Origin: Plasmodiophora brassicae
Lineage: Eukaryota
Reading direction: 5' to 3'
DNA length: 64,000 bases
NCBI GenBank assembly: GCA_036867785.1
Contig: CP145415.1
Span: forward strand, 434,001 to 498,000
Of the stretch, positions 14,709 through 44,747 are shown piece by piece (the first letter of the stretch is position 1; the number at the start of each line of letters is the position of its first letter). The translations under genes and the position numbers were made by a program. The notes below the pieces were generated by a model. It was not told where the DNA came from. It saw only the letters and a program-made list of their open reading frames with translations, and did no database searches.

Positions 14709-17358
14709 CCGCGTCGGCACAGTATTTCAACGGGTTCGAAGGCGCCTACAGACGACTCCGCATAGCGTGTCAACACGTCGTCCCCAGACGGTCTGTCGAG
14801 CTTGGCCGCTCTCTCGCACAAAAAATCGGACCAGCGCCTGGGGTTGCATTCTCTGGCCGTCCATCAAAACCCTGCGCGAAATTCATTAAGGTGAATAATC
14901 TCCCAGTATAGTAATGCCAACGGGTCGACCCGAGTCGGGCGAGCCAGGGACCTGTCCAGTCGGGTCTGGCCCGAATCTTGCCCTGGCGTCCACAATTCTG
15001 ACTCGGGTCAGACTCGAGTCGACCCAGGTCATGCATGAGTTGCATGCCACTTTCGTGCCTGCAGAAGGCCATGCTCGACGATTCACTGCAGACGAAATCG
15101 ACCTCGCCGCAAACGGTTCCAACGTCGTTGGCCGATAGTGATTCCTCGAGTCCAACCAAACGAATACGCCGGAGCTCGAGTCCAACCAGTTACGTTGGCG
15201 ATAACGCCAACGTCGGGATACAAGCTGGTGTTGTTGAAATCATTGATCCAGGGACCATATTCGAACGGCCCAGCATACAGACGAAGTCGACGTCGATGTT
15301 CGCACGACGACGTTTACGGGTTCTAGGATCGCGAGTCTTCAGACCGAGAACGCTGCGCACTAGGACGGCGTTGTTTGGAACCGCCTACTCCATCGCCCAT
15401 CGGGAACCAGGGGCTAAAGGAAGTCGACTTCTCGGGAATCACGTAACCGGGAAACTGGATAACGCAGGCCCCACCGCCAACATAGTCATTATCAGCGTGT
15501 TCAACCTGCCACCATCTACACAACAGTGGGGTCACCTTTCTGATAACAGCGGACAGATACTATGTGCCTAACTTGTCACAATAGAAACATTCCAGCTCGA
15601 ACGTTGAAGCGTCTGAAGTCGCTGCTGGGCATGGGAAGCCCAGGCGGGCAATCCTTCGAATGGATCCCAAGTATTGCCAGCCATATTCTCCAACGGTCAA
15701 GACAAGGTGGTTGCTTCTCCTTGGTTCGTCGCCATGTCCCTCGAGGTTGGCCTTCCAGAGGCAGTTGCCTATTACACCGGCCATGTAGCGGTTCATGGCA
15801 TGTGTGCACTGTGAATAAAATGCCAAAGGACGCTTGATTGAATACCTCGCACGTTGTCGGCAGATGGCGGACTCCAGCGACCGTCTTGCAGAACTTGTCA
15901 AACATTCGGATGTGACATATCTTGGAAAAGTTCTCGATACTGGCACGCGTTTCCTTGTGGAACATCTGGCATACTCTTCGGTAGTATTGCACGAAAGGCG
16001 AGTTCCGGTAATGCGCCCAGTCATCGGTCCATAGGTGGTGATGCAAATGGCACCGATCATCGTCCGGCAATGTACTCTGCGCAGCTAAAGCATCGTCGAT
16101 CCCGTATGAGGATCCATACACGACAGCTTGTGACTACAGGGTATCGACATCTTGAACCGGTCAGGGTAGAGAAACCTGCCACCCGTGATCAGCCATGTGG
16201 TCCAACATCCGATTGGTCGACATAGAGGCGACACTGGACTTTCTTCGAGAAGCGACAGTGGACTTTCTTCGAGAACGACGAATTCGGTAGCGGCGATGGT
16301 TCACGAACCGGTGACGTGAACCATCGCCGCTTCCGAATGCGTCGTCGCCTCTGGAAGAAACGCCTGTGGCGATGCACTCAGGGACAATGGGGACGGGCGT
16401 ACTTCAGGTGGGGACGACGACGATTTCGCCAACGCGCCTCGACGCCGCCGCTTTCGTAGTGGCAACACTGTTGTTTCAAGCCGGGGGATGACATCGATGG
16501 CGCTCGCAGCTGCAGTCCGGGGTGCGCGCTGCCTGGGCAGCTGGGCCAGGCCGTCCAGGGACAGGATACATTTGCTGTTGTCTTCCAGTACAAGATTTGC
16601 CTGTATTGTTGAATACGTTGTTGAGAGTATTTTGACACTATGTGAAGAAAAGGACATACGCTCACGCTGGCACTACGCTGTTACTGAACGCATCGATAGT
16701 GCCATGTTCCCTGCCAATAGATATCGAATACAGTACTGCGGGCAACAGCACCGCGCAAACACCACGACTGCGATCAGTCGTACATCAGCAGGCCTCTTTA
16801 TTTACGGACCAATCCGTACAATCCGTAAATAAGCTATTTACGGATGGACTACAGAGTTATATACGGATCCGTACGGATCCCTTAACGCATAGCGACATAG
16901 GGGGCAGTGACAATGTCTGGGAGTACTTTACTGACCTACTCAAACGTTAATGACTGCAGATATTCGTATTGCATGCAGTGCTGGCATCCTTCAAGGGATA
17001 AATCTGTAATCGCGACACGGAACTGGTCCTTCAGGGACTTCACGATCGAAAAATCGCTCTCGACCTGAGCGTTATGCGGGAAAACGGTCGCAATGCCACC
17101 ACAGAACTGTTGAAGGATGGGGAAGCGGTCTTTAACCGCTTTCCAACTGTCGTCGAAAGCAGAGCTTGAATCCAGACCATCCAGAGAGGCACGAAGAGTC
17201 GGCTCCATGGTATATGCTGAACACAACTCTCTATGTTGCTGTTCGATCAGGTCGATGTCGGTGCGGGTCCACTGCACCAAGAGACGAGAAGTTTGGCTAC
17301 GGACAACTGAGCAGAACTCCCTCGGCGGCAAGCGAACGAGTTCCTGTGGAGTGACTGG

Positions 17359-17450
17359 TGTCACGATCAGGCAAGCTGATGCAACGAACGCTTTGACGGA
17401 CTGGCGAAGTCCGTCGCGGGGTTCTCGGTTTATTCCGGACAGTCCTCACA
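17359..17450 (-). repeat. 3' LTR (92 bp)
   Basis: TGTCACGATC...GTCCTCACA, identical to 22783-22874. Confidence 0.93.
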
Positions 17451-17499
17451 TAATAGTCCCCTTCTAGCGATGGGCCTCTGACGGGTCCGGGATAGAAGG

Positions 17500-17805
17500 G
17501 CAGACGGATGGCCTCTGATGGGTCGCAGACGAACGGACAGGCGGATGAGCAGGCAGACGGGCGGGCAGACGGACGGACAGACGAACGGACAGGCGGATGA
17601 GCAGGCAGACGGGCGGGCAGACGGACGGACAGACGAACGGTGAGCAGGCAGACGGGCGGGCAGACGGACGGACAGACGGACGAACGGGCAGACGGACGGA
17701 CAGACGGACGAACGGGCAGACGGACGGACAGACGGACGAACGGGCAGACGGACGGATTAGCAGACGGACGGAGAGACGGGCGGGCGGGCAGACGGACGAA
17801 CAGGT
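17500..17805. repeat. GACG/GGCAGACG low-complexity tract
   Basis: Repeated GGGCAGACGGACGGACAGACG units; almost no T on the + strand. Confidence 0.85.
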
Positions 17806-17831
17806 TTGGTTAGTGACAGCACGTCGCAACC

Positions 17832-20800
17832 GAGGCCTTGACGTTGTGCAGGAGATGCCGAGGCGGGATCGACACTGGCGGACGGACGGACGGGTAGAGA
17901 CAGCAAGCGGTCAGGGAAACACCGGCGGCCTGGGAGGCAAACAGCACGGCGGGACACGCGCACTCTGGAACTTGGACCAGCTGCGACCGAGGCCTTGACG
18001 TTGTGCAGGAGATGCCGAGGCGGGATCGGCACGGACGGACGGGAAGAGACAGCAAGTGGTCAGGGGAACACCGGTGGCCTGAGAGGCATACAGCACGGCG
18101 GGACACGTACTCTGGGACTTGGACCAGGTACGACCAAGGCCTTGACGTTCTGCGGGGAATGCCGAGGCGAGATCGGCACGGACGGACGGACGGGCGGGAA
18201 GAGACAGCAAGCGGTCAGGGGAACACCGGTGGCCTGAGAGGCATACAGCACGGCGGGACACGCACTCTGGGACTTGGACCAGGTACGACCGAGGCCTTGA
18301 CGTTCTGCGGGGGATGCCGAGGCGAGATCGGCACGGACGGACGGACGGGCGGGAAGAGACAGCAAGCGGTCAGGGGAACACCTGTGGCCTGAGAGGCATA
18401 CAGCACGGCGGGACACGCACTCTGGGACTTGGACCAGGTACGACCGAGGCCTTGACGTTCTGCGGGGGATGCCGAGGCGAGATCGGCACGGACGGACGGG
18501 AAGAGACAGCAAGCGGTCAGGGGAACACCGGTGGCCTGAGAGGCATACAGCACGGCGGGACACGCACTCTGGGACTTGGACCAGGTACCACCGAGGCCTT
18601 GACGTTCTGCGGGGGATGCCGAGGCGAGATCGGCACGGACGGACGGGAAGAGACAGCAAGCGGTCAGGGGAACACCGGTGGCCTGAGAGGCATACAGCAC
18701 GGCGGGACACGCACTCTGGGACTTGGACCAGGTACGACCGAGGCCTTGACGTTCTGCGGGGGATGCCGAGGCGAGATCGGCACGGACGGACGGGAAGAGA
18801 CAGCAAGCGGTCAGGGGAACACCGGTGGCCTGAGAGGCATACAGCACGGCGGGACACGCACTCTGGGACTTGGACCAGGTACGACCGAGGCCTTGACGTT
18901 CTGCGGGGGATGCCGAGGCGAGATCGGCACGGACGGACGGGAAGAGACAGCAAGCGGTCAGGGGAACACCGGTGGCCTGAGAGGCATACAGCACGGCGGG
19001 ACACGCACTCTGGGACTTGGACCAGGTACGACCGAGGCCTTGACGTTCTGCGGGGGATGCCGAGGCGAGATCGGCACGGACGGACGGGAAGAGACAGCAA
19101 GCGGTCAGGGGAACACCGGTGGCCTGAGAGGCATACAGCACGGCGGGACACGCACTCTGGGACTTGGACCAGGTACGACCGAGGCCTTGACGTTCTGCGG
19201 GGGATGCCGAGGCGAGATCGGCACGGACGGACGGGAAGAGACAGCAAGCGGTCAGGGGAACACCGGTGGCCTGAGAGGCATACAGCACGGCGGGACACGC
19301 ACTCTGGGACTTGGACCAGGTACCACCGAGGCCTTGACGTTCTGCGGGGGATGCCGAGGCGAGATCGGCACGGACGGACGGGAAGAGACAGCAAGCGGTC
19401 AGGGGAACACCGGTGGCCTGAGAGGCATACAGCACGGCGGGACACGCACTCTGGGACTTGGACCAGGTACGACCGAGGCCTTGACGTTCTGCGGGGGATG
19501 CCGAGGCGAGATCGGCACGGACGGACGGGAAGAGACAGCAAGCGGTCAGGGGAACACCGGTGGCCTGAGAGGCATACAGCACGGCGGGACACGCACTCTG
19601 GGACTTGGACCAGGTACGACCGAGGCCTTGACGTTCTGCGGGGGATGCCGAGGCGAGATCGGCACGGACGGACGGGAAGAGACAGCAAGCGGTCAGGGGA
19701 ACACCGGTGGCCTGAGAGGCATACAGCACGGCGGGACACGCACTCTGGGACTTGGACCAGGTACGACCGAGGCCTTGACGTTCTGCGGGGGATGCCGAGG
19801 CGAGATCGGCACGGACGGACGGGAAGAGACAGCAAGCGGTCAGGGGAACACCGGTGGCCTGAGAGGCATACAGCACGGCGGGACACGCACTCTGGGACTT
19901 GGACCAGGTACGACCGAGGCCTTGACGTTCTGCGGGGGATGCCGAGGCGAGATCGGCACGGACGGACGGGAAGAGACAGCAAGCGGTCAGGGGAACACCG
20001 GTGGCCTGAGAGGCATACAGCACGGCGGGACACGCACTCTGGGACTTGGACCAGGTACGACCGAGGCCTTGACGTTCTGCGGGGGATGCCGAGGCGAGAT
20101 CGGCACGGACGGACGGGAAGAGACAGCAAGCGGTCAGGGGAACACCGGTGGCCTGAGAGGCATACAGCACGGCGGGACACGCACTCTGGGACTTGGACCA
20201 GGTACGACCGAGGCCTTGACGTTCTGCGGGGGATGCCGAGGCGAGATCGGCACGGACGGACGGGAAGAGACAGCAAGCGGTCAGGGGAACACCGGTGGCC
20301 TGAGAGGCATACAGCACGGCGGGACACGCACTCTGGGACTTGGACCAGGTACGACCGAGGCCTTGACGTTCTGCGGGGGATGCCGAGGCGAGATCGGCAC
20401 GGACGGACGGGAAGAGACAGCAAGCGGTCAGGGGAACACCGGTGGCCTGAGAGGCATACAGCACGGCGGGACACGCACTCTGGGACTTGGACCAGGTACC
20501 ACCGAGGCCTTGACGTTCTGCGGGGGATGCCGAGGCGAGATCGGCACGGACGGACGGGAAGAGACAGCAAGCGGTCAGGGGAACACCGGTGGCCTGAGAG
20601 GCATACAGCACGGCGGGACACGCACTCTGGGACTTGGACCAGGTACGACCGAGGCCTTGACGTTCTGCGGGGGATGCCGAGGCGAGATCGGCACGGACGG
20701 ACGGGAAGAGACAGCAAGCGGTCAGGGGAACACCGGTGGCCTGAGAGGCATACAGCACGGCGGGACACGCACTCCGGGACTTGGACCAGGTACGACCGAG

Positions 20801-22750
20801 GCCTTGACGTTCTGCGGGGGATGCCGAGGCGAGATCGGCACGGACGGACGGGAAGAGACAGCAAGCGGTCAGGGGAACACCGGTGGCCTGAGAGGCATAC
20901 AGCACGGCGGGACACGCACTCTGGGACTTGGACCAGGTACCACCGAGGCCTTGACGTTCTGCGGGGGATGCCGAGGCGAGATCGGCACGGACGGACGGGA
21001 AGAGACAGCAAGCGGTCAGGGGAACACCGGTGGCCTGAGAGGCATACAGCACGGCGGGACACGCACTCTGGGACTTGGACCAGGTACGACCGAGGCCTTG
21101 ACGTTCTGCGGGGGATGCCGAGGCGAGATCGGCACGGACGGACGGGAAGAGACAGCAAGCGGTCAGGGGAACACCGGTGGCCTGAGAGGCATACAGCACG
21201 GCGGGACACGCACTCTGGGACTTGGACCAGGTACGACCGAGGCCTTGACGTTCTGCGGGGGATGCCGAGGCGAGATCGGCACGGACGGACGGGAAGAGAC
21301 AGCAAGCGGTCAGGGGAACACCGGTGGCCTGAGAGGCATACAGCACGGCGGGACACGCACTCTGGGACTTGGACCAGGTACGACCGAGGCCTTGACGTTC
21401 TGCGGGGGATGCCGAGGCGAGATCGGCACGGACGGACGGGAAGAGACAGCAAGCGGTCAGGGGAACACCGGTGGCCTGAGAGGCATACAGCACGGCGGGA
21501 CACGCACTCTGGGACTTGGACCAGGTACGACCGAGGCCTTGACGTTCTGCGGGGGATGCCGAGGCGAGATCGGCACGGACGGACGGGAAGAGACAGCAAG
21601 CGGTCAGGGGAACACCGGTGGCCTGAGAGGCATACAGCACGGCGGGACACGCACTCTGGGACTTGGACCAGGTACGACCGAGGCCTTGACGTTCTGCGGG
21701 GGATGCCGAGGCGAGATCGGCACGGACGGACGGGAAGAGACAGCAAGCGGTCAGGGGAACACCGGTGGCCTGAGAGGCATACAGCACGGCGGGACACGCA
21801 CTCTGGGACTTGGACCAGGTACCACCGAGGCCTTGACGTTCTGCGGGGGATGCCGAGGCGAGATCGGCACGGACGGACGGGAAGAGACAGCAAGCGGTCA
21901 GGGGAACACCGGTGGCCTGAGAGGCATACAGCACGGCGGGACACGCACTCCGGGACTTGGACCAGGTACGACCGAGGCCTTGACGTTCTGCGGGGGATGC
22001 CGAGGCGAGATCGGCACGGACGGACGGGAAGAGACAGCAAGCGGTCAGGGGAACACCGGTGGCCTGAGAGGCATACAGCACGGCGGGACACGCACTCTGG
22101 GACTTGGACCAGGTACCACCGAGGCCTTGACGTTCTGCGGGGGATGCCGAGGCGAGATCGGCACGGACGGACGGGAAGAGACAGCAAGCGGTCAGGGGAA
22201 CACCGGTGGCCTGAGAGGCATACAGCACGGCGGGACACGCACTCTGGGACTTGGACCAGGTACGACCGAGGCCTTGACGTTCTGCGGGGGATGCCGAGGC
22301 GAGATCGGCACGGACGGACGGGAAGAGACAGCAAGCGGTCAGGGGAACACCGGTGGCCTGAGAGGCATACAGCACGGCGGGACACGCACTCTGGGACTTG
22401 GACCAGGTACGACCGAGGCCTTGACGTTCTGCGGGGGATGCCGAGGCGAGATCGGCACGGACGGACGGGAAGAGACAGCAAGCGGTCAGGGGAACACCGG
22501 TGGCCTGAGAGGCATACAGCACGGCGGGACACGCACTCTGGGACTTGGACCAGGTACGACCGAGGCCTTGACGTTCTGCGGGAGATGCCGAGGCGAGATC
22601 GGCACGGACGGACGGGAAGAGACAGCAAGCGGTCAGGGGAACACCGGTGGCCTGAGAGGCATACAGCACGGCGGGACACGTACTCTGGGACTTCGACCAG
22701 GTACCACCGAGGCCTTGACGTTCTGCAGGAGATGCCGAGGCGGGATCGAC
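17832..22750. repeat. 147-bp tandem array, about 33 copies
   Basis: Sequence at 18421 recurs in phase at 21361 (20 x 147); 49-aa periodicity in four ORFs; core units differ at only one or two positions. Confidence 0.97.
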
Positions 22751-22770
22751 AGGAGGGTGGTGGGATAGGT

Positions 22771-22781
22771 AGTCCGTCAAA
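22771..22781 (-). promoter_or_regulatory. Putative self-priming primer-binding site
   Basis: Minus-strand TTTGACGGACT lies 1 nt from the LTR and is the exact complement of AGTCCGTCAAA within the LTR (22826-22816). Confidence 0.75.
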
Positions 22782-22782
22782 A

Positions 22783-22874
22783 TGTCACGATCAGGCAAGC
22801 TGATGCAACGAACGCTTTGACGGACTGGCGAAGTCCGTCGCGGGGTTCTCGGTTTATTCCGGACAGTCCTCACA
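22783..22874 (-). repeat. 5' LTR (92 bp)
   Basis: Identical to 17359-17450; followed on the minus strand by a PBS complementary to the LTR itself. Confidence 0.93.
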
Positions 22875-25647
22875 ACTGGGGGGAAGTCAACCGTGCTCGG
22901 GTCGTTATTCGAATCCCGTTCACAAACAACATCAAAAATGCCACTGATAGCCAGCAAATACAGACTGGCAGTGGCGTCCACCACTTTGATGAAGGCTTCC
23001 GAATCCATCTCGTCAATTCGATCATGTACAAAGGTCCCCATGTCCAGAATAAAATTTTGAACATGTTCTCGATCGATAGCGAAACGATTACAGTCCGACG
23101 GCAACCACGAATCGCCCAACTGATCCACCTGATCGACAGACAAAGGACCGCGGCCATTGACATGCCCGAGAAGACGTCGGCAGAGCTCGCTCATTGCATG
23201 ACGTTGCATGTTAACCGTTTGTTTAGGACCCTGGATCGTCCTGAACGTGGTTCTGCAACAGGTAGCGAATTCGTGGACGACCATGAGCATAACCCACCAT
23301 TGGGGCGATGGTTTACACACAGGAGATGTCGAAAGCACATGGTCAAAGACCCGGACTCGGTGCAGGCTAAACCATGCTGTGACGCTGGCCATAGATTCCC
23401 ACCGGGTGTCGGCCACGGTGGGCACCTTCGTCCGCATTTCGTTGATGAGGTTGTGTTGACGACGCAGGTACCCGATTAACCTAGTGAGCGAAGAGTAAAA
23501 TTCGTCGTCGCCGTACCGCTTATAAACCTTCTGGAGAACAAGGTCTAGCTGGTGTGCGACACACCAAACGCGAATAAAACCAGGTTGGGCAACGCGCTGG
23601 AACCTGGTAACAACCCCGTTTAGCGACCCGGTCATCTTCTTCTCCCCGTCGGTAGTCGAACTCAGAATAACGTCACGCCACGACGTACAGACAGCATCCA
23701 GTGCTTTGCTGATAGTGTTGAAGATAACTTCAGCGGTATGCCGTTCGAATACTGGAATGGCGAGGAAATGACAGTTCACGATACCCGTGCGATTGCTGTG
23801 CAGGCGCAGGCGAACATCCAAGTACGACGTCGAAAAATGGGTCGACATATCCAGGGACACAGCGAATGCCCAAGATTTCGAAAGCATATCGGAGATCGAC
23901 TGCAAGTTGATGGCGCAGACGTAGCGCGCATATTTCGAAATAGTCGAATCCGAACACGACCCCAACGATGCGAGTCCCGTACGCTCCTTTGTGCGGGTAA
24001 GCAGGAATGCCGTCTGCCGGAACGAGCAGTTCACAGACAGATGGTCTACGGCAAGGTCGAATTGGGCAGGATTCCTGAAGTTGATTCAGTATTGAGATGA
24101 CATCTTGAAATTCACAACGCCTGACCGTATTTCGAATTCGTAGTTGCTGGGATCATCTGTTCCCTCAGAGGTAGAAAACGAACTCATCATCCGGGCACGC
24201 GTATCGCCTTCGAGGAGGTTCTCGGGATCCCAGAGCATATCGCCGATGATGACATCAACGATGCTCTTCTTGACCACGTGTACTCGCGTGACCTGACTCG
24301 CTCCAAAGTATTGGTGCAGAGTCGTCCGCACAGGTCGCGCGCCGCTGAAGAATGCCTTCTTCTGGTCGACACTGAGAGGCTCGTAGCGTTGCCAGTTCGC
24401 CGGATGCTGGCCTCTGTGATGTTGAGTGTAGTTATCAGCTCGGAATGGGAACCGGAAATACTTGACGTTCTTCCTCGCTTTGCGTTTGGCGCCAACCTTT
24501 TCTTCCCTGCCGAAATGGACGCAGAAGAGGCATTCGACGCTGAGCACAAGGTTCGGCTGGTTCACATGGTACTGAACGGGGCGCACAGCATATGCTAGCT
24601 CGTGAGAACGCTCGAAGGCCTCTGAATGCCCCGACGACATGCTGGCGCCACCGGCAACTGCACAATGCGGGGTCGCTTATTTACGGACCGACCGCAACTC
24701 TCCGTACGGATCCGTACGGAGAATACCGTGCAAAATCCGTAAATAAAGAGGCCTGTACATCAGGCCCGTTTTTCAATGACCACTGTCCGGATCCGCGTGG
24801 CTCCACACATCAGGAAAAATGGGCCTGATGAGGCGCCCCGACCCACCAGTGGTCGTTGAAAAATGGGCCTGATCTACGACTGCGCTCAGACATGCATCGG
24901 TGCTTTGGGGACCCCAACCCACAGTCAAGCAGATGCTCATTTGCGATATCGATCGCCAATGGCGAGCAACGAATCGAATCTGACGCAGACGACCAGATCC
25001 CGGAAGAGCGGCCCCGGACTAAGCGTAAGAGACGCGTTCAGAAAAGCAAAGGACCGTGCCCTCACTGGCACGAAATCAGCTGCAAGTTGGCTGCAGGCCA
25101 ATGGGCAATGGGCAATGGCTGCAGGCGGATGCAGGAATAGCTGCGCACAAGTTCACAACTGACGTCGTAAACAGCTGTTTCGCTATGTCGACGAGACCCT
25201 TCCTTTCAGCACTGGCCTTAAGATGATGCCCTGTCGAAGGGCAGAACGGCATCAGGCACGGGGGCAAGCGTACACCGATTCATCTTTGCGCAAGGCAACA
25301 TGGTGCGGGTGTGCACGATGTGCCATCCGGCCTTGGAGTTCCGCCGCCGGGGCGGACGGCGTCGTAATGACCAGTCCATCTGCAGTCCTGGGCGGGTACG
25401 GCGAATCTGACTCGGGCCGAATACCGGTATGTAGGAACCTCCAAACGTGAGTCGAGTTGGGTCGACTCGCTGCCCGTGTGGCCGTACGTTGCTGCGACGT
25501 TCAATGCACCGTTTTGCGTGTGGAGGCTACTGACGGATGGTGCCGTACTCTCCAAATCAATGACTCCTTGCCGATCCTTTCGTCGTTGTCCCGTCGAAAC
25601 CGCAGTGCTGGCGATGACAGTCGGTGTCGAATTGTAGATGAGGCGCT

Positions 25648-29651: not shown

Positions 29652-29723
29652 GGCCGCTTAGTTTAGTGGCATAATTCTCGGTTTGGGTCCGAGAGGTCCC
29701 GCGTTCGATTCGCGGAGCGGCCC
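29652..29723 (+). tRNA. tRNA-Pro(TGG)
   Basis: Acceptor stem GGCCGCT/AGCGGCC; anticodon arm CTCGG-TT-TGG-GT-CCGAG; T loop TTCGATT; TTTT terminator follows. Confidence 0.95.
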
Positions 29724-33449: not shown

Positions 33450-33866
33450 CCTCTCCCCCCAAAGGTCGCCAACAAGACGCCCAACCCCGAACGTTGAATG
33501 ATACAAAAACCACCGCCCCGCCCCCCGAAGGATCCAAAAACTCGCCGGCGCCGTCACTGCCTCGCACTGCGCCCACAAGTCACCGGGCGGTCGGCGCCCA
33601 AACTGGGAACCCGTCGCTTGTCACGTAGGCCAAGACGTGCACCGGGCGCCACGTGACTCGCCTGCTGCGCAGCGCCCGGACGCGAGACGACGCAGTTTGC
33701 CCGGGCGGGACCGACGCGGATCTGTGAACGGTACACCATCCGCAAGCGAGGGAGACCATGCCCAGCAGACAAGGCTTGGGTGCCATCTGTATATTCTACA
33801 CGTCATCACCGACGCCCATGCCGTCGCCAGGCTGCCGCCCGGAGCCAGAACTTAGTCGTCCCCGTC

Positions 33867-34787
33867 ATGGATGTCCGCCACGGAGTGCGACACGAGTCGA
33901 TTACCGCTCGGGAATTCCTCGGCCTGACTGGCTGCTGCGTTCGCTGCCCAATGGTCAAGCATGGTATTCCGAAGGTGGGCCTTGCTGTCAGAGCGTTGAG
34001 AAAGGTGTGCCCCCGGAAATTCCGACAGGCTCGGGATAGGCAACCGGATCGCAATCGACCACTGCCGGACGTCGCCATTCGCGTCAAAACGAAGGATCGT
34101 CAACAACTTCGCCGTCCGCATCCGACTGCCGACGTTCCCGGCAAGGGTAACGATGGGCACCAACTTCGTCGTCTAAAATCCATCGCCGTCGTTCGTGTCA
34201 ACAACGATGACATTCCGGTGAAGGTGATTGGTCGCGTCCTGTCGCCCGGGCAATGGATCCCCGACGAGATCGTCAACGCTTATCTGTACCTATGCGCGAA
34301 GAGGTCCTCCCGTCGCATCGTCGCCATCTCCAGTTTCCTGCTGGCGTCTATCACGGAACGTTGGCGCGCACCGAACCGACATCGCTGGACAAGACGCGTT
34401 GACTGGAACGCCGTCGACATTGCACTCGTCCCAATTCACGTCCCGTCTCGCATGCATTGGGTACTTGCCGTCGTGGATATATCCGAACATGCTATATCGG
34501 CGCTGGATTCGTTACCGGGTCAGGCATTGCCCAAGGAGGTCTTTGTCCTGGCGAGGTACATGCGAAGTGAGATGGCGGCGCGAATGGGCGACAAACGCCC
34601 ATGGTCGACCCGGCCGTGGCACTGCGCCGTACCGACCCAGATGAACGGCGATGACTGTGGTGTGTTCGTCTGTGAATTTGCTAGGCGGGTTGCCCTTCGC
34701 CGTCGTATCGATCGTATCAGACCTGACCGAATGGACCGGGTCCGATCCAAGATAAAAGAGGAGCTGCTCGTGCAGCCTGTAATGTAG
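33867..34787 (+). CDS. Ulp1/SENP (peptidase C48) SUMO protease-like, single exon
   Basis: WIPDEIVNAY, VPIH...HWVLAVVD, LDSL, QMNGDDCGVFVC: His-Asp-Cys triad and oxyanion Gln. Confidence 0.85.
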   Translation: MDVRHGVRHESITAREFLGLTGCCVRCPMVKHGIPKVGLAVRALRKVCPRKFRQARDRQPDRNRPLPDVAIRVKTKDRQQLRRPHPTADVPGKGNDGHQLRRLKSIAVVRVNNDDIPVKVIGRVLSPGQWIPDEIVNAYLYLCAKRSSRRIVAISSFLLASITERWRAPNRHRWTRRVDWNAVDIALVPIHVPSRMHWVLAVVDISEHAISALDSLPGQALPKEVFVLARYMRSEMAARMGDKRPWSTRPWHCAVPTQMNGDDCGVFVCEFARRVALRRRIDRIRPDRMDRVRSKIKEELLVQPVM

Positions 34788-35149
34788 AATAATGGGAATA
34801 TGCACGTTATGCGAACACGTATAGGCACGGTTAACCGGTACCATACAGCAATTTTCTCGCACATCATTGAGGAATCGGCCATCAGCCTGGACGAATCGGA
34901 ATAGAGATGTTGCCTGCGTGAGGGCATTCCCACGTTCAGCCCAGGCCGTGCCAAGACCAAGTGTGTTCTTGTCGAATCCATGTTGGCAATTGGAGTTCAG
35001 GTTGCTGTCGGCGCCACCCGCACAGTACCTGACGCGTCAGATCCACGCGGTGTGGGCTTGGGAATGAAGGAACATTCCGTCTCGAACCTGACGAAGACTT
35101 TCGTCGCGTTGACTGCCTGTGCCGCCCGCTGGCGAAGTCAGTCCCAGCG

Positions 35150-35296
35150 TTCATTTCAGGCACTGGCCACATGGGTTTGCAGAGTATTATGCGGTAGGAC
35201 AACATATACTCACGTCCGATTCATTTTCAGGCACTGGCCACATGGGTTTGCAGAGTATTATGCGGTAGGACAACATATACTCACGTCCGATTCATT
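35150..35296. repeat. ~70-bp tandem duplication
   Basis: CAGGCACTGGCCACATGGG...CACGTCCGATTCATT present twice. Confidence 0.9.
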
Positions 35297-35668
35297 GCCT
35301 CATGCCTGTCTGACTAAACTCTTCACATAGACGAAAGGCTGTACCAGAGACATGGTAGACTGCGGCCCGCGGGAGGAACGTCCGCCTGTCGGAACGGGTT
35401 CACACCGCGTCGGTCAGCTGCGTAACGCACGTTGGGTCAGCTCCGGCCGGAGTTCGGGGTACCGTTTGCACCACTGTTCGGCACACTATTTTCGTTCGCA
35501 CCACTGTTCGGCAAACTATTTTAGGTTCGTGATCCAGTGCCCAGTGCCCAGTGGTCCCTGCCCTCCTCACCCGTCGGGCGGCTGCATTCCCAAACGCCGT
35601 CTGTTGCATCCGTTGTGCCAACGCTGTCTGGAGTTTTACCATCAGCGCCGATGCGCCCCGCTACGAGG

Positions 35669-37207
35669 ATGCAGCTGCTGCTTCTGCTTGCCCTGGTCGT
35701 CGTCGACGACGTCGTCCTCGCCATGCCTGGCTTAAGGCACCCGGCTTTCGTGCCGAACGCGATCATGCCCGAAGAGAACGTGTATCGTTCGCAAGGCAGC
35801 GCTGCAAAGTTCCCATCGACGGGCGCCAGCTCGCGACCCCAGTTCACGATGCGTAAAGCCGTCGACGACACCCCTGGCCGGTTGCACCCGGCTTTCATCC
35901 CAGACGCGATCATGCCGAGTGAGGAGAAGACGGTGCGCCGACGTTCGTCGAACAACAACCTCAAGTCTCTCATGCGGGACGGGACCCGTCAGGTCATCAG
36001 CTCGCGATCCCAATTCGCGACACGTATTCCCGCCTCCCGGCCTGGTCTAACGCATCCCGCTTTCGTTCCGGACGCGATCATGTCAAGTGAAGAAGGCGAA
36101 ATGGATCCTCGTCAGTCGGACATCCCAACACTACCCTCAGTGGATGTGGTATTGCCCGAGGACGAGGCCACCGGCTCACAACTCCAGCCCGCCATACGCA
36201 AATCCGGTCAATCTCTCGGATTCGCATCCACGCCATCAATCTTGCCCAACAAGCCTAATGAGCTACACATGGACGTCTCTTCGCGTTGGTTCGCGTTAAA
36301 GGCAACGGTGGTGCTGATGCCGTCGACAATGGGCGTGTATCGTCTGACTTTAGAGAACGTTCAACGGCGTAAACTTCGTCAAGAAACCCCATTCTACCTT
36401 ATGGACAAGCGAATTCGTACGATCCTGGATAGACTTGTCGCTGTCAAAGACGTTGCATTGATCGATGTGCCCGGTGTCGACGTTGTCGCGATCGTTATCA
36501 GGCACCCCAATATCCAGAGGCTGATATATCGTTTAATGGCACCAGTTGGCCTCAAGGACGCGTTAAGGATCCCAGTGGGGCACATTGTCGGCGACGTTTG
36601 GGGCAATGATGTTATCCGCCTCACACAAGCGTCGTCAGTCGACGTCAAATACCAGATATCGCTCTGCTACCCAGTCTCACGCGTTCTGCTGACCTACTCC
36701 TGCCTGTCAAGGCGGTTGTTCATATCGTACTGCCATGTCACCTTCGGCGGACAACCTACCACCCATCATTGGGAGCTGAACGCCACTGAAATCGAATTTG
36801 GCGATCCGGGAGAATTTCTGAAAACGTACCCGAACCGGCACGACATTGAGATTCACCTGTCGTACTGCCCTCTGTCCGAGTCGGGTGTGCACGTGACCAA
36901 GCACTTCGCCATAAACAGGGTATACCAAAAGAACCCGACTAATGCTATGGGGTCGGATGTCATCGGCCAACTGAGGGCCGTCAAGACCGAGATCGATCCT
37001 CAACTTGCCAGGATCGACTATGTCATCCAGGCATTTTCCAGAGCCGGTTTGTCAATGGAGATGCAGGTCAGCGTCGCCGCCAGTGCCAATGGTCCCGAGA
37101 AAACCTTCCGTTCGAGGTGGACCTGGGCCGTTGGGAAGTCCTGGCCCATGGGGAGGTTCTGGCTGGACTTCGCTAATGAAGTATTTCCCGACAGCCCCAC
37201 TGCCTGA
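35669..37207 (+). CDS. Secreted hypothetical protein, paralogue A
   Basis: Signal-peptide-like MQLLLLLALVVV; three HPAF(V/I)P(N/D)AIM repeats; C-terminal region shared with the next gene. Confidence 0.8.
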   Translation: MQLLLLLALVVVDDVVLAMPGLRHPAFVPNAIMPEENVYRSQGSAAKFPSTGASSRPQFTMRKAVDDTPGRLHPAFIPDAIMPSEEKTVRRRSSNNNLKSLMRDGTRQVISSRSQFATRIPASRPGLTHPAFVPDAIMSSEEGEMDPRQSDIPTLPSVDVVLPEDEATGSQLQPAIRKSGQSLGFASTPSILPNKPNELHMDVSSRWFALKATVVLMPSTMGVYRLTLENVQRRKLRQETPFYLMDKRIRTILDRLVAVKDVALIDVPGVDVVAIVIRHPNIQRLIYRLMAPVGLKDALRIPVGHIVGDVWGNDVIRLTQASSVDVKYQISLCYPVSRVLLTYSCLSRRLFISYCHVTFGGQPTTHHWELNATEIEFGDPGEFLKTYPNRHDIEIHLSYCPLSESGVHVTKHFAINRVYQKNPTNAMGSDVIGQLRAVKTEIDPQLARIDYVIQAFSRAGLSMEMQVSVAASANGPEKTFRSRWTWAVGKSWPMGRFWLDFANEVFPDSPTA

Positions 37208-37724
37208 AGCGCCCGCGCAGCACAAATCCTAACATTAGGAGGTTTTCAGTGACCATTGACCCAGACGGTTTGTATACAATACACGCTACTCCTCAAAGGG
37301 TGCCATCATTAGGAACCGCGTCGTTCGCCCGGGTATGTGCTGAGTGGGTGCCCTGACAGCCCAGTGGGGATTAATGACGTCATGGAGTCCATTGCTAAAC
37401 AAAATCGCCGTTCGTACCGAGCGCATGTATCACAGGAGCAATAAACGGCCAAAGCGTTCCGGGGGGACGCCGTTTGTTGCTGGGTCCGGAACGTGGCCCG
37501 TAAGGAACATCTGTTTGGCGCTAGTGGCGCTGCAGAGCAACGTGCCAGACGCGCTGGTCAAACAATGCGTCTGTCGCAAAACACAATGTTGCGACAGTCA
37601 TTCGAGCAGCAACTGCGCCACTGTCGCAACTAGCAGACTGCGAACTTGTGGACGCGTTCGCCGCGTCAATCACTGCGCAGTTTTGATCGCAGCACCGTCG
37701 GAACCGCCATCACGCGTCTGCACC

Positions 37725-38924
37725 ATGACGACGCTGGTGATTCTGCTCGTTCTGGTCATCTGCAACCCCGTCGTTGCCACAGCAGCTGACAAGTTTATAA
37801 CGCAACCGCGCTCTACGCTCAGCTTGCGCCCTGTTGCGGGAGCTAAGGCCAATATCCGTCGGCGATCGTTCAACGTCGCCCCAGAGTTCCCCCTGCTGGA
37901 CACGGTCCCCCAGTTCGACTCGCCAAGCAGGTTCACGGTGACGTCGTCCGGATCCCCACCCGCATCTCCGACGAAGTCCGCGTCCACCTTCAAGGTCATC
38001 GTCTTGCGCAAGGAGCCCGACGACCACATCCTGCACCTAGACGTCTCGTCGCCCTGGTTCACATTGTCCAAGCTGATGGCACCGGCACCGAACGTGCACC
38101 ATTTGACGCTCGACAACGCCCGAGGACACACCCGCGACCTCAATGAACGCATTCGCACCGTCCTGGACAAGATGGGTGGGATCCAGGACGTCACGCTGAT
38201 TGGGGTACCCGGGTTCCACATCGTTCCGAGCGTCGTCGACCACGACAATATCCAGACGATGCGGTCCCTGCTAAAAGCACCGGTTCGCGGCAAGGGTGCG
38301 CTACCGTTCCCGAAGGGTCACGTCCTCGGCGCCGTTTGGGGAAACGACGCTCTTCAGCTGACTGAACAATCTTCCGTTCGTTTGGTCGTCTCCACGCGTA
38401 AAGAGCAGACATGCAAGCTGCTGGCGCCAGCTGTCCTGTCGTACTCCTGCCACACGGGGCGCCTTTTCATATCGTACTGCCAGGTCCTGCTGTTCGGTAC
38501 ACGACGAAGGACGCGCACGTGGGACCTGTCCGCCGATTACGTCTCGTTCGCCGGCGCTGAGACCTTCCTGTCGACGTACTCAAACGTGCACAACGTCGAG
38601 ATCCGCCTGTCGTCCTGTCCGCTGTTCGCAACGCACGTTCACCTGCCGAAGCACTTCGCCAGGAACGTCGTCTACCAGAAGGACCCGATTGACGCCCGTT
38701 ACATCGAGCGTCTGCACGTCCGCATGCCCGAGATCGACCCCGACCAGGCCAGCATCGATTACGCCGTCGTCGAGTCGACGCCATCCGGTTCCGAAATGGA
38801 GATCGAGGTCAGCGTCGACGGCGACCGAATCGTCCGCTCCAAGTGGACATGGTCGAAGGGGCGCTTCCGCATCGCCGACCACGTTGCCGCGAATCGCGTC
38901 AAGCACCAGCGTCGTTACGAATAA
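37725..38924 (+). CDS. Secreted hypothetical protein, paralogue B
   Basis: Signal-peptide-like MTTLVILLVLVICNPVVATA; shares LHxDVSSxWF, RIRTxLD, VWGND, RLFISYC, KHFA, VYQKxP, EIDP and IDY with paralogue A. Confidence 0.8.
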   Translation: MTTLVILLVLVICNPVVATAADKFITQPRSTLSLRPVAGAKANIRRRSFNVAPEFPLLDTVPQFDSPSRFTVTSSGSPPASPTKSASTFKVIVLRKEPDDHILHLDVSSPWFTLSKLMAPAPNVHHLTLDNARGHTRDLNERIRTVLDKMGGIQDVTLIGVPGFHIVPSVVDHDNIQTMRSLLKAPVRGKGALPFPKGHVLGAVWGNDALQLTEQSSVRLVVSTRKEQTCKLLAPAVLSYSCHTGRLFISYCQVLLFGTRRRTRTWDLSADYVSFAGAETFLSTYSNVHNVEIRLSSCPLFATHVHLPKHFARNVVYQKDPIDARYIERLHVRMPEIDPDQASIDYAVVESTPSGSEMEIEVSVDGDRIVRSKWTWSKGRFRIADHVAANRVKHQRRYE

Positions 38925-43889: not shown

Positions 43890-44747
43890 TTAACGAGCGG
43901 CGGATTCGTCGTCGTCGTCGCCGGCGATGGTGGGTATGTACGATATCTCGACAGAGGCGGCCGAGACGCGGCGATACGAGCCGGCGTCGTTGCGCGCATC
44001 GGTGATCGCGCGCAGACGTTTCCGAATCAGGAAGACGATGTAGGCGGCGGACGCGACCAGGCAGACGGTGCCGGCATACATGAACGCCTGGCCGATCGGC
44101 GAGGCGCTGTGCCTGCCCGACGAGATCTGGCTGAGCGAGTCCAGCGTCGACCCGACGAACGTGAAGACGGCGCATTCGGGCAGCAGGCCGACGGAGGCCA
44201 GCAGGAACACCTTGGCCGGCATGGTCGTCGTACCCGCTACGTAGCTGAGCACGCTCTGCGGCACGACGGGCGACATGCGCAGCAGGACCAGGATCCGGAA
44301 GCCCTGGTCGACGATGGCGCGTTGCAACTCGACGTACTTTGGCGACGGGGCGATGACCCGCGCCTGGATGTACGACGACAGGAAGCGCCTCGCCAGCATG
44401 AACGACAGGAACGTCGACACGTACTGTGATAGGAACGTGGCCAGCAGGGCGACCGGGATGCCGACGGCGACGCCGAGCTCGAAGCAGAAGATGAACCCGC
44501 CCGTGGTCGCCAGCAGCGACGTCGGCAGGCAGCAGGCGGCGAACACGATGTAGAACAGGCAGTAGCCGACGACCTCCAGGGCGATCCCGCCGGTGCTGTC
44601 GCCCAGCCCATAGAACCGTCGCTCTTCCAGGTGCGCCAGCAGCACGAGCAGCACCTTCGACAGCAGGTAGACGACACCGACCGCGGCGCCCGCGACAACG
44701 GCAGCGCCGGCCGCCATCGCAACCCTCCTCCTCGTCGTCGTCGTCAT
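43890..44747 (-). CDS. TVP38/TMEM64 (DedA/VTT) membrane protein
   Basis: LLATTGGFIF, FMLARRF, LLRMSPVVPQSVLSYVAG, multiple TMs. Confidence 0.85.
   Translation of the reverse strand: MTTTTRRRVAMAAGAAVVAGAAVGVVYLLSKVLLVLLAHLEERRFYGLGDSTGGIALEVVGYCLFYIVFAACCLPTSLLATTGGFIFCFELGVAVGIPVALLATFLSQYVSTFLSFMLARRFLSSYIQARVIAPSPKYVELQRAIVDQGFRILVLLRMSPVVPQSVLSYVAGTTTMPAKVFLLASVGLLPECAVFTFVGSTLDSLSQISSGRHSASPIGQAFMYAGTVCLVASAAYIVFLIRKRLRAITDARNDAGSYRRVSAASVEISYIPTIAGDDDDESAAR

Follow-up and report, generated by a model that had tools for sequence, protein, structure and literature searches.

What is the structure that occupies positions 17359 to 22874 of the 64,000-nt stretch of DNA analysed here (the window: Plasmodiophora brassicae, assembly GCA_036867785.1, contig CP145415.1, positions 434,001 to 498,000), in which two short direct repeats enclose an interior given over almost wholly to a 147-bp tandem array? 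And if it is a mobile element, how is an element of this kind copied, and did the array travel with it? In this study, we report that the structure is a long terminal repeat (LTR) retrotransposon without gag or pol, inserted into the transposase gene of a hAT DNA transposon. The best explanation, which we regard as probable, is a non-autonomous LTR retrotransposon of 5,516 bp, most likely on the minus strand and belonging to a multi-copy family with 92-bp LTRs, that recently inserted into the hAT transposase gene with a 5-bp duplication. All positions are those of the window, and the features are listed in Table 1.

The two LTRs are identical at 92/92 positions and have TG..CA termini, and their identity extends by 0 bases past either border. 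The pentamer ACTGG lies directly outside both LTRs; the chance of a 5-bp match at both borders alone is about 1 in 1,024. Direct terminal repeats with TG..CA termini, a duplication in the range of 4-6 bp and a known uninterrupted target are among the structural marks of an LTR retrotransposon, and these three were found. The interior between the LTRs (17451-22782) measures 5,332 bp. No further copy of the LTR or of the 147-bp unit was present within the 64-kb window, in which the best matches were 19 nt (LTR) and 21 nt (unit).

The insertion lies within another transposon. This host has perfect 20-bp terminal inverted repeats at 16789-16808 and 24736-24755, flanked by an 8-bp duplication at 16781-16788 and 24756-24763. 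Short terminal inverted repeats together with an 8-bp duplication are the hallmark of hAT transposons. An open reading frame (ORF) on the minus strand enters the right LTR from 24034, and in silico removal of the LTR element with one ACTGG restored an ORF of 525 codons ending at 16936; the break falls exactly after codon 385, and the reading frame is open on both sides. The match of this split ORF to the hAT dimerisation domain (E = 0.065) was below the cut-off, and it also contains what we take to be a CxxH motif. Oomycetes, chytrids, diatoms and a moss supply its 52 homologues, and such a patchy taxonomic spread is typical of transposases. The host of the split ORF is a hAT transposon, apparently intact apart from the LTR element, and the LTR element is a true insertion into its transposase gene. 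Two transposon families thus appear to have been recently active at this locus, an intact hAT having been struck by the LTR element.

Logan contigs of four public sequencing runs (X1, X2, X16 and X17) were compared with positions 15500-17524 of the window, that is, with the left junction only. An uninterrupted target was found in X17, where a 1,513-nt contig matched 16788-17358 with 0 differences and continued with 30/30 letters of 22880-22909, carrying a single ACTGG. At its other end, this contig ceases to match the window at the hAT terminus (16788), and therefore represents a paralogous hAT copy, not an empty allele of this locus. A 14-kb contig of X1 and a 157-nt contig of X2 passed from the flank into the LTR by 30 and 27 letters, respectively, with 0 differences, which is the reach expected at a repeat from a graph with k = 31. 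The earlier note on this DNA, made from its letters alone, had described identical 92-bp TG...CA LTRs with an ACTGG target-site duplication and had read them as a recent insertion. Both statements held, since the repeats match in full with exact borders and a duplication on both sides, and the identity of the LTRs, the intact duplication and the hAT ORF still open on either side agree with a recent event.

Some further observations concern the hAT. Its paralogues in the runs diverge from the window exactly at 16788, and a derivative skipping 16845-17035 (191 bases) was seen in three runs. X1 and X2 are unlike in hAT-to-flank depth, and the copy number of the hAT may therefore vary between them.

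The same runs showed that the LTR belongs to a family. In X1, LTR-only unitigs had a depth of 1,342-1,856 against 66.9 on the flank (the 14-kb contig), a ratio of 20-28, and in X2 the depth was 3,225 against 47-56, a ratio of 57-68; unitig depth is not equal to copy number, and these LTR/flank ratios are rough. In X1, X2 and X17 the LTR was joined to other flanks at loose ends, both before it (17358/17362) and behind it (17450), and at least 82 additional loose ends exist beyond those listed. The LTR family is multi-copy and dispersed, with differing flanks. Further copies of the LTR had been named by the earlier note as a check on its reading, and they were found at other flanks in public runs, at 20-68 times the flank depth. 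Moreover, a contig covering 17423-17524 and beyond had a depth of 452.5 against 66.9 on the flank in X1 (about 7x) and of 787 against 47-56 in X2 (14-17x); several family members therefore possess this interior end.

A longer relative was also detected. A 5,250-nt contig of X17 ends in LTR positions 17395-17435 with 3 differences, and its next 20 nt match the element at 17/20, so that a relative with a variant LTR and at least 5.2 kb of non-collapsed interior exists in this run. Seen only as coordinates and 30 letters, and with its gag-pol assumed, it is a candidate for the autonomous partner. Such a partner had been postulated beforehand; the longer relative is real, and the role of partner is one that we infer.

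Depth in X16 was of another order, at 57,000-324,000 over the LTR and adjoining interior (17336-17524) versus 5-1,100 on the nearby flank. It was also very uneven, reaching 323,661 over 17472-17524, with short contigs and adapter letters at loose ends. Very abundant family RNA or an unusual library may lie behind this extreme depth; six public runs were guessed as RNA. X17 lacked cover over most of the unique flank 15500-16787, which was left uninterpreted, and the LTR and hAT depth ratios differ between runs. A 21-nt word of the LTR gave 0 matches in metagenome contigs and 0 in viral contigs, and a 30-nt word of the 147-bp unit gave 0 matches in metagenome contigs. The single prokaryote-genome match of the LTR word was rejected as a chance match having only those 21 letters in common with the LTR.

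Along the plus strand, the interior opens with 74 unique nt, which are followed by short-period repeats over 280 nt, a 24-nt spacer, the 147-bp array and a further 34 nt of unique sequence. The array (period 147, 33.3 copies, 98% matches by Tandem Repeats Finder) accounts for 4,920 of the 5,332 interior bases (92%), in agreement with the roughly 33 copies and 90% given earlier. Its plus strand is purine-rich, with a GC content of 0.66, a GC skew of 0.21-0.22 and an AT skew of 0.35-0.36. The non-array interior amounts to only 412 bp, and gag/pol therefore cannot fit. No reverse transcriptase, integrase or gag domain was found by Pfam among the 80 of 109 window ORFs of at least 150 aa that were scanned, a set which omits 25 ORFs mostly overlapping longer ones and four array ORFs that were partly scanned. 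The element has no gag/pol coding capacity and is non-autonomous.

The units of the array carry a record of its history. Among the 147-nt units, 20/29 are identical, eight differ at one site, and unit 32 differs at four (2.7% from the core). Divergence from the core grows towards both edges of the array: the first unit (at 17831) differs by 8.2% and three indels, the second by 4.1% and the terminal 44-nt partial unit by 9.1%, and an 8-nt insertion is common to two units. When the first 44 nt of unit one are set against the terminal partial unit, 1/44 sites differ; set against the core, the former differ at 5 sites and the latter at 4. Near-identical 44-nt ends that are distinct from the core are the signature of a tandemly duplicated segment bounded by a 44-nt repeat, the middle of which was homogenised later. 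Variants recur at a spacing of eight units (units 19/27 and 20/28), which hints at block duplication. For the LTRs, a count of 0/92 differences would have a chance of about 5e-4 at 8.2% divergence. Since the edge units are 2.7-9.1% off the core while the LTRs are identical, several distinct units would, at equal rates, predate the insertion and have passed through reverse transcription. The view that the element carries arrays, put forward in the earlier note, thus gains indirect support from edge units 4-9% off the core beside identical LTRs, in that at least a small array would be older than the insertion, given equal rates.

A different history can be drawn from the same units. The mobile unit could have been an element of about 0.8 kb resembling a terminal-repeat retrotransposon in miniature (TRIM), with one 147-bp segment and the 44-nt repeat, and the whole array would then have expanded in place after integration and would not be cargo. 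The core units, identical or one site off, indicate that most of the growth was very recent, the eight-unit spacing of variants fits unequal exchange at the DNA level, and direct repeats are readily lost during reverse transcription. However, the diverged edge units, the three indels in the first unit and the shared 8-nt insertion stand beside LTRs with no differences, so that growth in place needs arrays mutating far faster than LTRs. We consider such growth of the whole array unlikely.

The direction in which the element is read was addressed through its priming site. The 25 nt after the 5' LTR were searched on each strand for the longest complement within the LTR, and the result was compared with 5,000 shuffles. 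On the plus strand the longest complement was 5 nt, a length reached by 3,930/5,000 shuffles, whereas on the minus strand a perfect complement of 11 nt was found, reached by 1/5,000. Since the plus strand has no such 11-nt LTR complement, a minus-strand orientation of the element is the most likely one; there the putative primer-binding site is complementary to about 11 nt of the LTR as in the Tf1/sushi group. RNA from 22826 down to 22755 is predicted to form a 12-bp stem between primer and binding site that encloses a 5-bp hairpin, at -23.7 kcal/mol. None of 200 shuffles was as stable (z = -4.9), a score that is inflated because the start of the fold was picked from the complementarity, and that is not an independent test. 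Other details fit the minus strand: AATAAA occurs in the LTR on that strand only and lies upstream of the predicted start, a purine run precedes the 3' LTR, and only about 30 nt separate the 5' LTR from the start of the array. Two relatives, seen at loose ends, keep a purine-rich run (AAGAGGA) at the equivalent place.

Priming by a tRNA was compared with the two tRNAs that Rfam found over the whole window, tRNA-Glu (TTC) at 1698-1770 and tRNA-Pro (TGG) at 29652-29723; these were its only matches, and the element itself had none. No TGG start follows the 5' LTR on either strand, and the complement to these two tRNAs was at most 5 nt; a primer-binding site of the tRNA type was thus not found with respect to these two. 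We consider a minus-strand, self-primed element to be on balance likely from the pattern of complementarity. Three proposals of the earlier note turn on this choice of strand. Its self-priming site agrees with the 11-nt complementarity on the minus strand and has nothing beyond 5 nt on the plus strand. Its polypurine tract would correspond on the minus strand to a purine run of 9 nt that does not abut the LTR, and its distance of about 30 nt from the 5' LTR to the array is right for the minus strand (31-34 nt) and wrong for the plus strand (378 nt).

If the element were instead read on the plus strand, it would be primed by a tRNA or tRNA half, and the 11-nt complementarity at the right LTR would be incidental. 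A G-rich, mostly purine stretch (GGAGGGTGGTGGGATAGGTAG) does lie 12 nt before the right LTR, and the comparison covered two tRNAs of the organism. But the 25 nt past the left LTR have no TGG start, their complement to the LTR and to the two window tRNAs is no longer than 5 nt, which most shuffles equal in the case of the LTR, while the minus-strand complementarity was matched by a single shuffle and AATAAA is confined to the minus strand of the LTR. A plus-strand element is, in our view, quite improbable.

The presumed primer site has a 7-nt core, the heptamer GACGGAC (plus strand), of which the short-period repeats hold 16 copies and the array 36, on one strand throughout. Over the other 58.5 kb of the window it occurs 12 times, both strands combined. 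A minus-strand transcript would bear 52 internal look-alikes of its own primer core.

A protein-coding origin of the array, in which each unit would encode 49 residues and the element would have captured the repeat or become fused to it, could be suspected from its four open frames out of six, with ORFs of 1,444-1,939 codons, and from the divisibility of 147 by 3. A stop-poor repeat of 3 x 49 bases, however, opens four frames at once by itself. The GC content by codon position is flat in every frame of the array (0.65/0.65/0.67), whereas two genuine genes from elsewhere in the window gave 0.60/0.49/0.64 and 0.61/0.48/0.91. In Pfam, the array frames gave only summed sub-threshold matches piled up, with 0 stretches passing alone and no credible family, and an exact look-up of seven versions of the array ORFs in a collection of 15 billion proteins returned 0/7, while a neighbouring gene of the window was present on six contigs. 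We regard a coding array as very improbable. The absence of gag/pol reported earlier is likewise upheld by the 412-bp non-array interior, the flat codon-position GC and the lack of a credible Pfam match. Finally, an artefact of assembly or recombination is hardly credible: short-read contigs cannot verify the array length and no record spans an LTR border by 31 letters on both sides, but the borders are exact, the 5-bp duplication is present, removal restores the ORF exactly, contigs from two studies pass from flank to LTR without a difference, and the LTR is multi-copy with other flanks.

Besides the dependence of the fold score on the chosen start, several points weigh against a self-primed minus-strand element that inserted recently with its array. 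The purine run is short, at 9 nt, and 6 nt off the LTR, and AATAAA lies upstream of the predicted start, so that R would be very short were this motif the poly(A) signal. The age argument presumes that array and LTRs mutate at equal rates and that the LTRs have undergone no gene conversion with each other. The uninterrupted hAT copy of X17 has a different left flank at 16788 and is a paralogue. The reach of the X1 and X2 contigs into the LTR (30 and 27 letters) falls short of the 31 letters that bridging requires, and the window may have been assembled from the sample of X1. No second full copy of the element was seen in the run contigs over 15500-17524, and gag-pol in the 5.2-kb relative of X17, of which coordinates and 30 letters were seen, is an assumption.

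Taken together, the favoured non-autonomous, minus-strand element would probably be copied by self-primed reverse transcription as in Tf1, from a transcript starting at minus-strand position 49 of the LTR (about 22826). The first 11 nt of this transcript would fold back on the 11-nt site located 1 nt after the 5' LTR and be cleaved to yield the primer, and the proteins would be supplied in trans by a longer relative with the same LTR and the same region adjoining the 3' LTR. The array is rather likely to have been born by tandem duplication of an interior segment bounded by the 44-nt repeat and to have comprised several units at reverse transcription. The near-identical core of about 28 units may have grown by unequal exchange or template switching, before or after the insertion. 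A more speculative extension, which we put forward tentatively and hold to be doubtful, is that the family is an active self-primed lineage that repeatedly re-inserts nucleosome-length (147-bp) arrays and so scatters satellite seeds of varying length across loci of a compact, gene-dense genome; the 52 copies of the primer core in its cargo might promote template switching that alters array length.

Table 1. Features of the LTR element and of its hAT host (window positions; strand as read for the favoured orientation)
Feature	Position	Strand	Basis
Host hAT-type DNA transposon, 2,446 bp without the insert	16789..24755	-	20-bp perfect terminal inverted repeats, 8-bp duplication TACATCAG, split ORF
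Target-site duplication ACTGG, left copy	17354..17358	.	Uninterrupted target in run X17 has a single ACTGG
92-bp LTR, TG..CA; 3' LTR if the element is on the minus strand	17359..17450	-	92/92 identity to 22783-22874
Unique interior adjoining the 3' LTR (minus strand), common to several family members	17451..17524	-	Run depth
Purine run AGAAGGGGA, polypurine-tract candidate	17457..17465	-	6 nt upstream of the 3' LTR
Repeats of short period (8-52), GACGGACGGACA-like (GACGG-type)	17525..17804	.	GACGGAC found 16 times, plus strand only
Tandem array of the 147-bp unit (33.3 copies), homogeneous in the core and diverged at the edges	17829..22748	.	Tandem Repeats Finder, unit comparison
Primer-binding-site candidate TTTGACGGACT	22771..22781	-	1 nt after the 5' LTR; complements LTR minus-strand positions 49-59
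92-bp LTR; 5' LTR if the element is on the minus strand	22783..22874	-	Identical partner of 17359-17450
Self-primer candidate AGTCCGTCAAA in the LTR, putative transcript start	22816..22826 (also 17392-17402)	-	Complementarity and fold
AATAAA, candidate TATA-like or poly(A) signal	22853..22858	-	27-32 nt upstream of the putative start; function inferred only
Target-site duplication ACTGG, right copy	22875..22879	.	Sequence

The locus offers a clean example, with exact borders and a known target, of a gene-less LTR element that is almost wholly a satellite-like array and looks freshly inserted, and it bears on the dispersal of satellites. If self-priming is true, a non-autonomous parasite of Tf1-type elements would here employ their own trick, and would do so in a host that has no close relatives among sequenced organisms. 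Insertions of this kind could also serve as markers between isolates.

Among the scanned ORFs of the window are those of ordinary, intron-split eukaryotic genes (BEACH/WD40, aconitase, enolase, RGS and Ulp1). After an ORF for a Ulp1 protease (33780-34787) come 2.1 copies of a 71-bp repeat (35150-35296) and then two long ORFs without a Pfam family (35537-37207 and 37344-38924), and the region 33780-38924 may be another mobile element. For a protein with a VTT domain, encoded at 43890-44747 on the minus strand, a search of 5.8 billion proteins returned, besides its own entry on six contigs (the longest of 1.37 Mb), a single relative with 33% identity across 36% of the protein. Judging by this protein, the host lineage is poorly sampled in the protein collection.

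Published systems were compared through the available parts of the sources cited. Ten sugar-beet families of non-autonomous LTR retrotransposons with internal satellite-like arrays (TRIM-03, -04, -11 and others) are described in the available part of PMC13570524, a study that includes a 5.5-kb element with 186-bp LTRs. The present element resembles these families in its short LTRs, its lack of coding capacity, its 5-bp duplication and an interior enlarged by a satellite-like array (PMC13570524). It differs in its 92-bp LTRs, in an array that takes up 92% of the interior and in a self-complementary priming site. The host also differs, not being a land plant, and for a neighbouring gene the protein collection offers nothing closer than 33% identity.

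TRIMs are described as shorter than 1 kb in the same source (PMC13570524). The present element, with 5,516 bp in total and an interior of 5,332 bp, exceeds this length of about 1 kb, and is TRIM-sized, at about 0.8 kb, when the array is removed. With TRIMs and large retrotransposon derivatives (LARDs) it shares LTRs, the positions of a candidate primer-binding site and a candidate polypurine tract, the absence of gag/pol and a presumed mobilisation in trans. LARDs are large and the classic ones have long LTRs, whereas the LTRs here measure 92 bp.

Self-primed LTR retrotransposons form the Tf1/sushi group (Tf1, Tf2, Tj1, Maggy, Skippy and others; PMC7175516, PMC4600332, PMC6317226). In priming of this type the complementary stretch forms the extreme 5' end of the transcript, from which RNase H cuts it. 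For Tj1 and others the same mechanism was inferred from like complementarity (PMC4600332), and among plant elements the Tcn1 and TAR lineages are predicted to be self-primed (PMC6317226), as far as the available parts of these sources go. As in this group, an 11-nt site just past the 5' LTR of the present element complements a stretch of the LTR, and a hairpin is predicted between primer and site. This hairpin is reminiscent of the U5-IR stem-loop that a 1998 paper by Lin and Levin has in its title. Tf1 has an LTR several times longer than 92 bp. In contrast to the element described here, members of the group are autonomous and their lineage is set by pol genes; here the transcript start is a prediction and pol is absent, and a lineage, which is placed by reverse transcriptase, RNase H and integrase, can therefore not be assigned.

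Tandem arrays are also known from Ogre/Retand elements, in which they lie between pol and the 3' LTR and act as sources of satellites, according to the available parts of PMC7004042 and PMC11963269. The common feature is a family-specific tandem array inside an LTR retrotransposon, which in Ogre/Retand is length-variable and sometimes expanding. Those, however, are described in these sources as plant Ty3/gypsy elements that are large, for the most part autonomous, and carry their arrays towards the 3' end, whereas the array here begins about 30 nt after the priming site and there is no other cargo. Cassandra TRIMs and retrozymes are likewise small and non-autonomous, and their LTRs contain a structured motif, represented here by an 8-bp hairpin. 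They differ in bearing a 5S-like or hammerhead RNA in the LTR; with E relaxed to 1, Rfam gave no family on the two strands of 17200-18700, so that neither a hammerhead nor a 5S-like sequence was detected there.

The earlier note had not recognised the combination of tiny LTRs, self-priming site and array cargo as a described family. Novelty of the concept is not supported, since gene-less LTR elements with arrays (sugar beet, PMC13570524) and self-priming lineages (PMC6317226) are already published, to judge from the available parts of these sources. Judged by title and abstract, no published element was found that combines self-priming, a non-autonomous LTR structure and a tandem array. The concept itself is known, and the present element is a variant that stands apart in its 92-bp LTR, in a self-complementary priming site carried by a gene-less element, in how much of the interior the array fills, and in its host, which lies outside the land plants and lacks close relatives in the protein collection.

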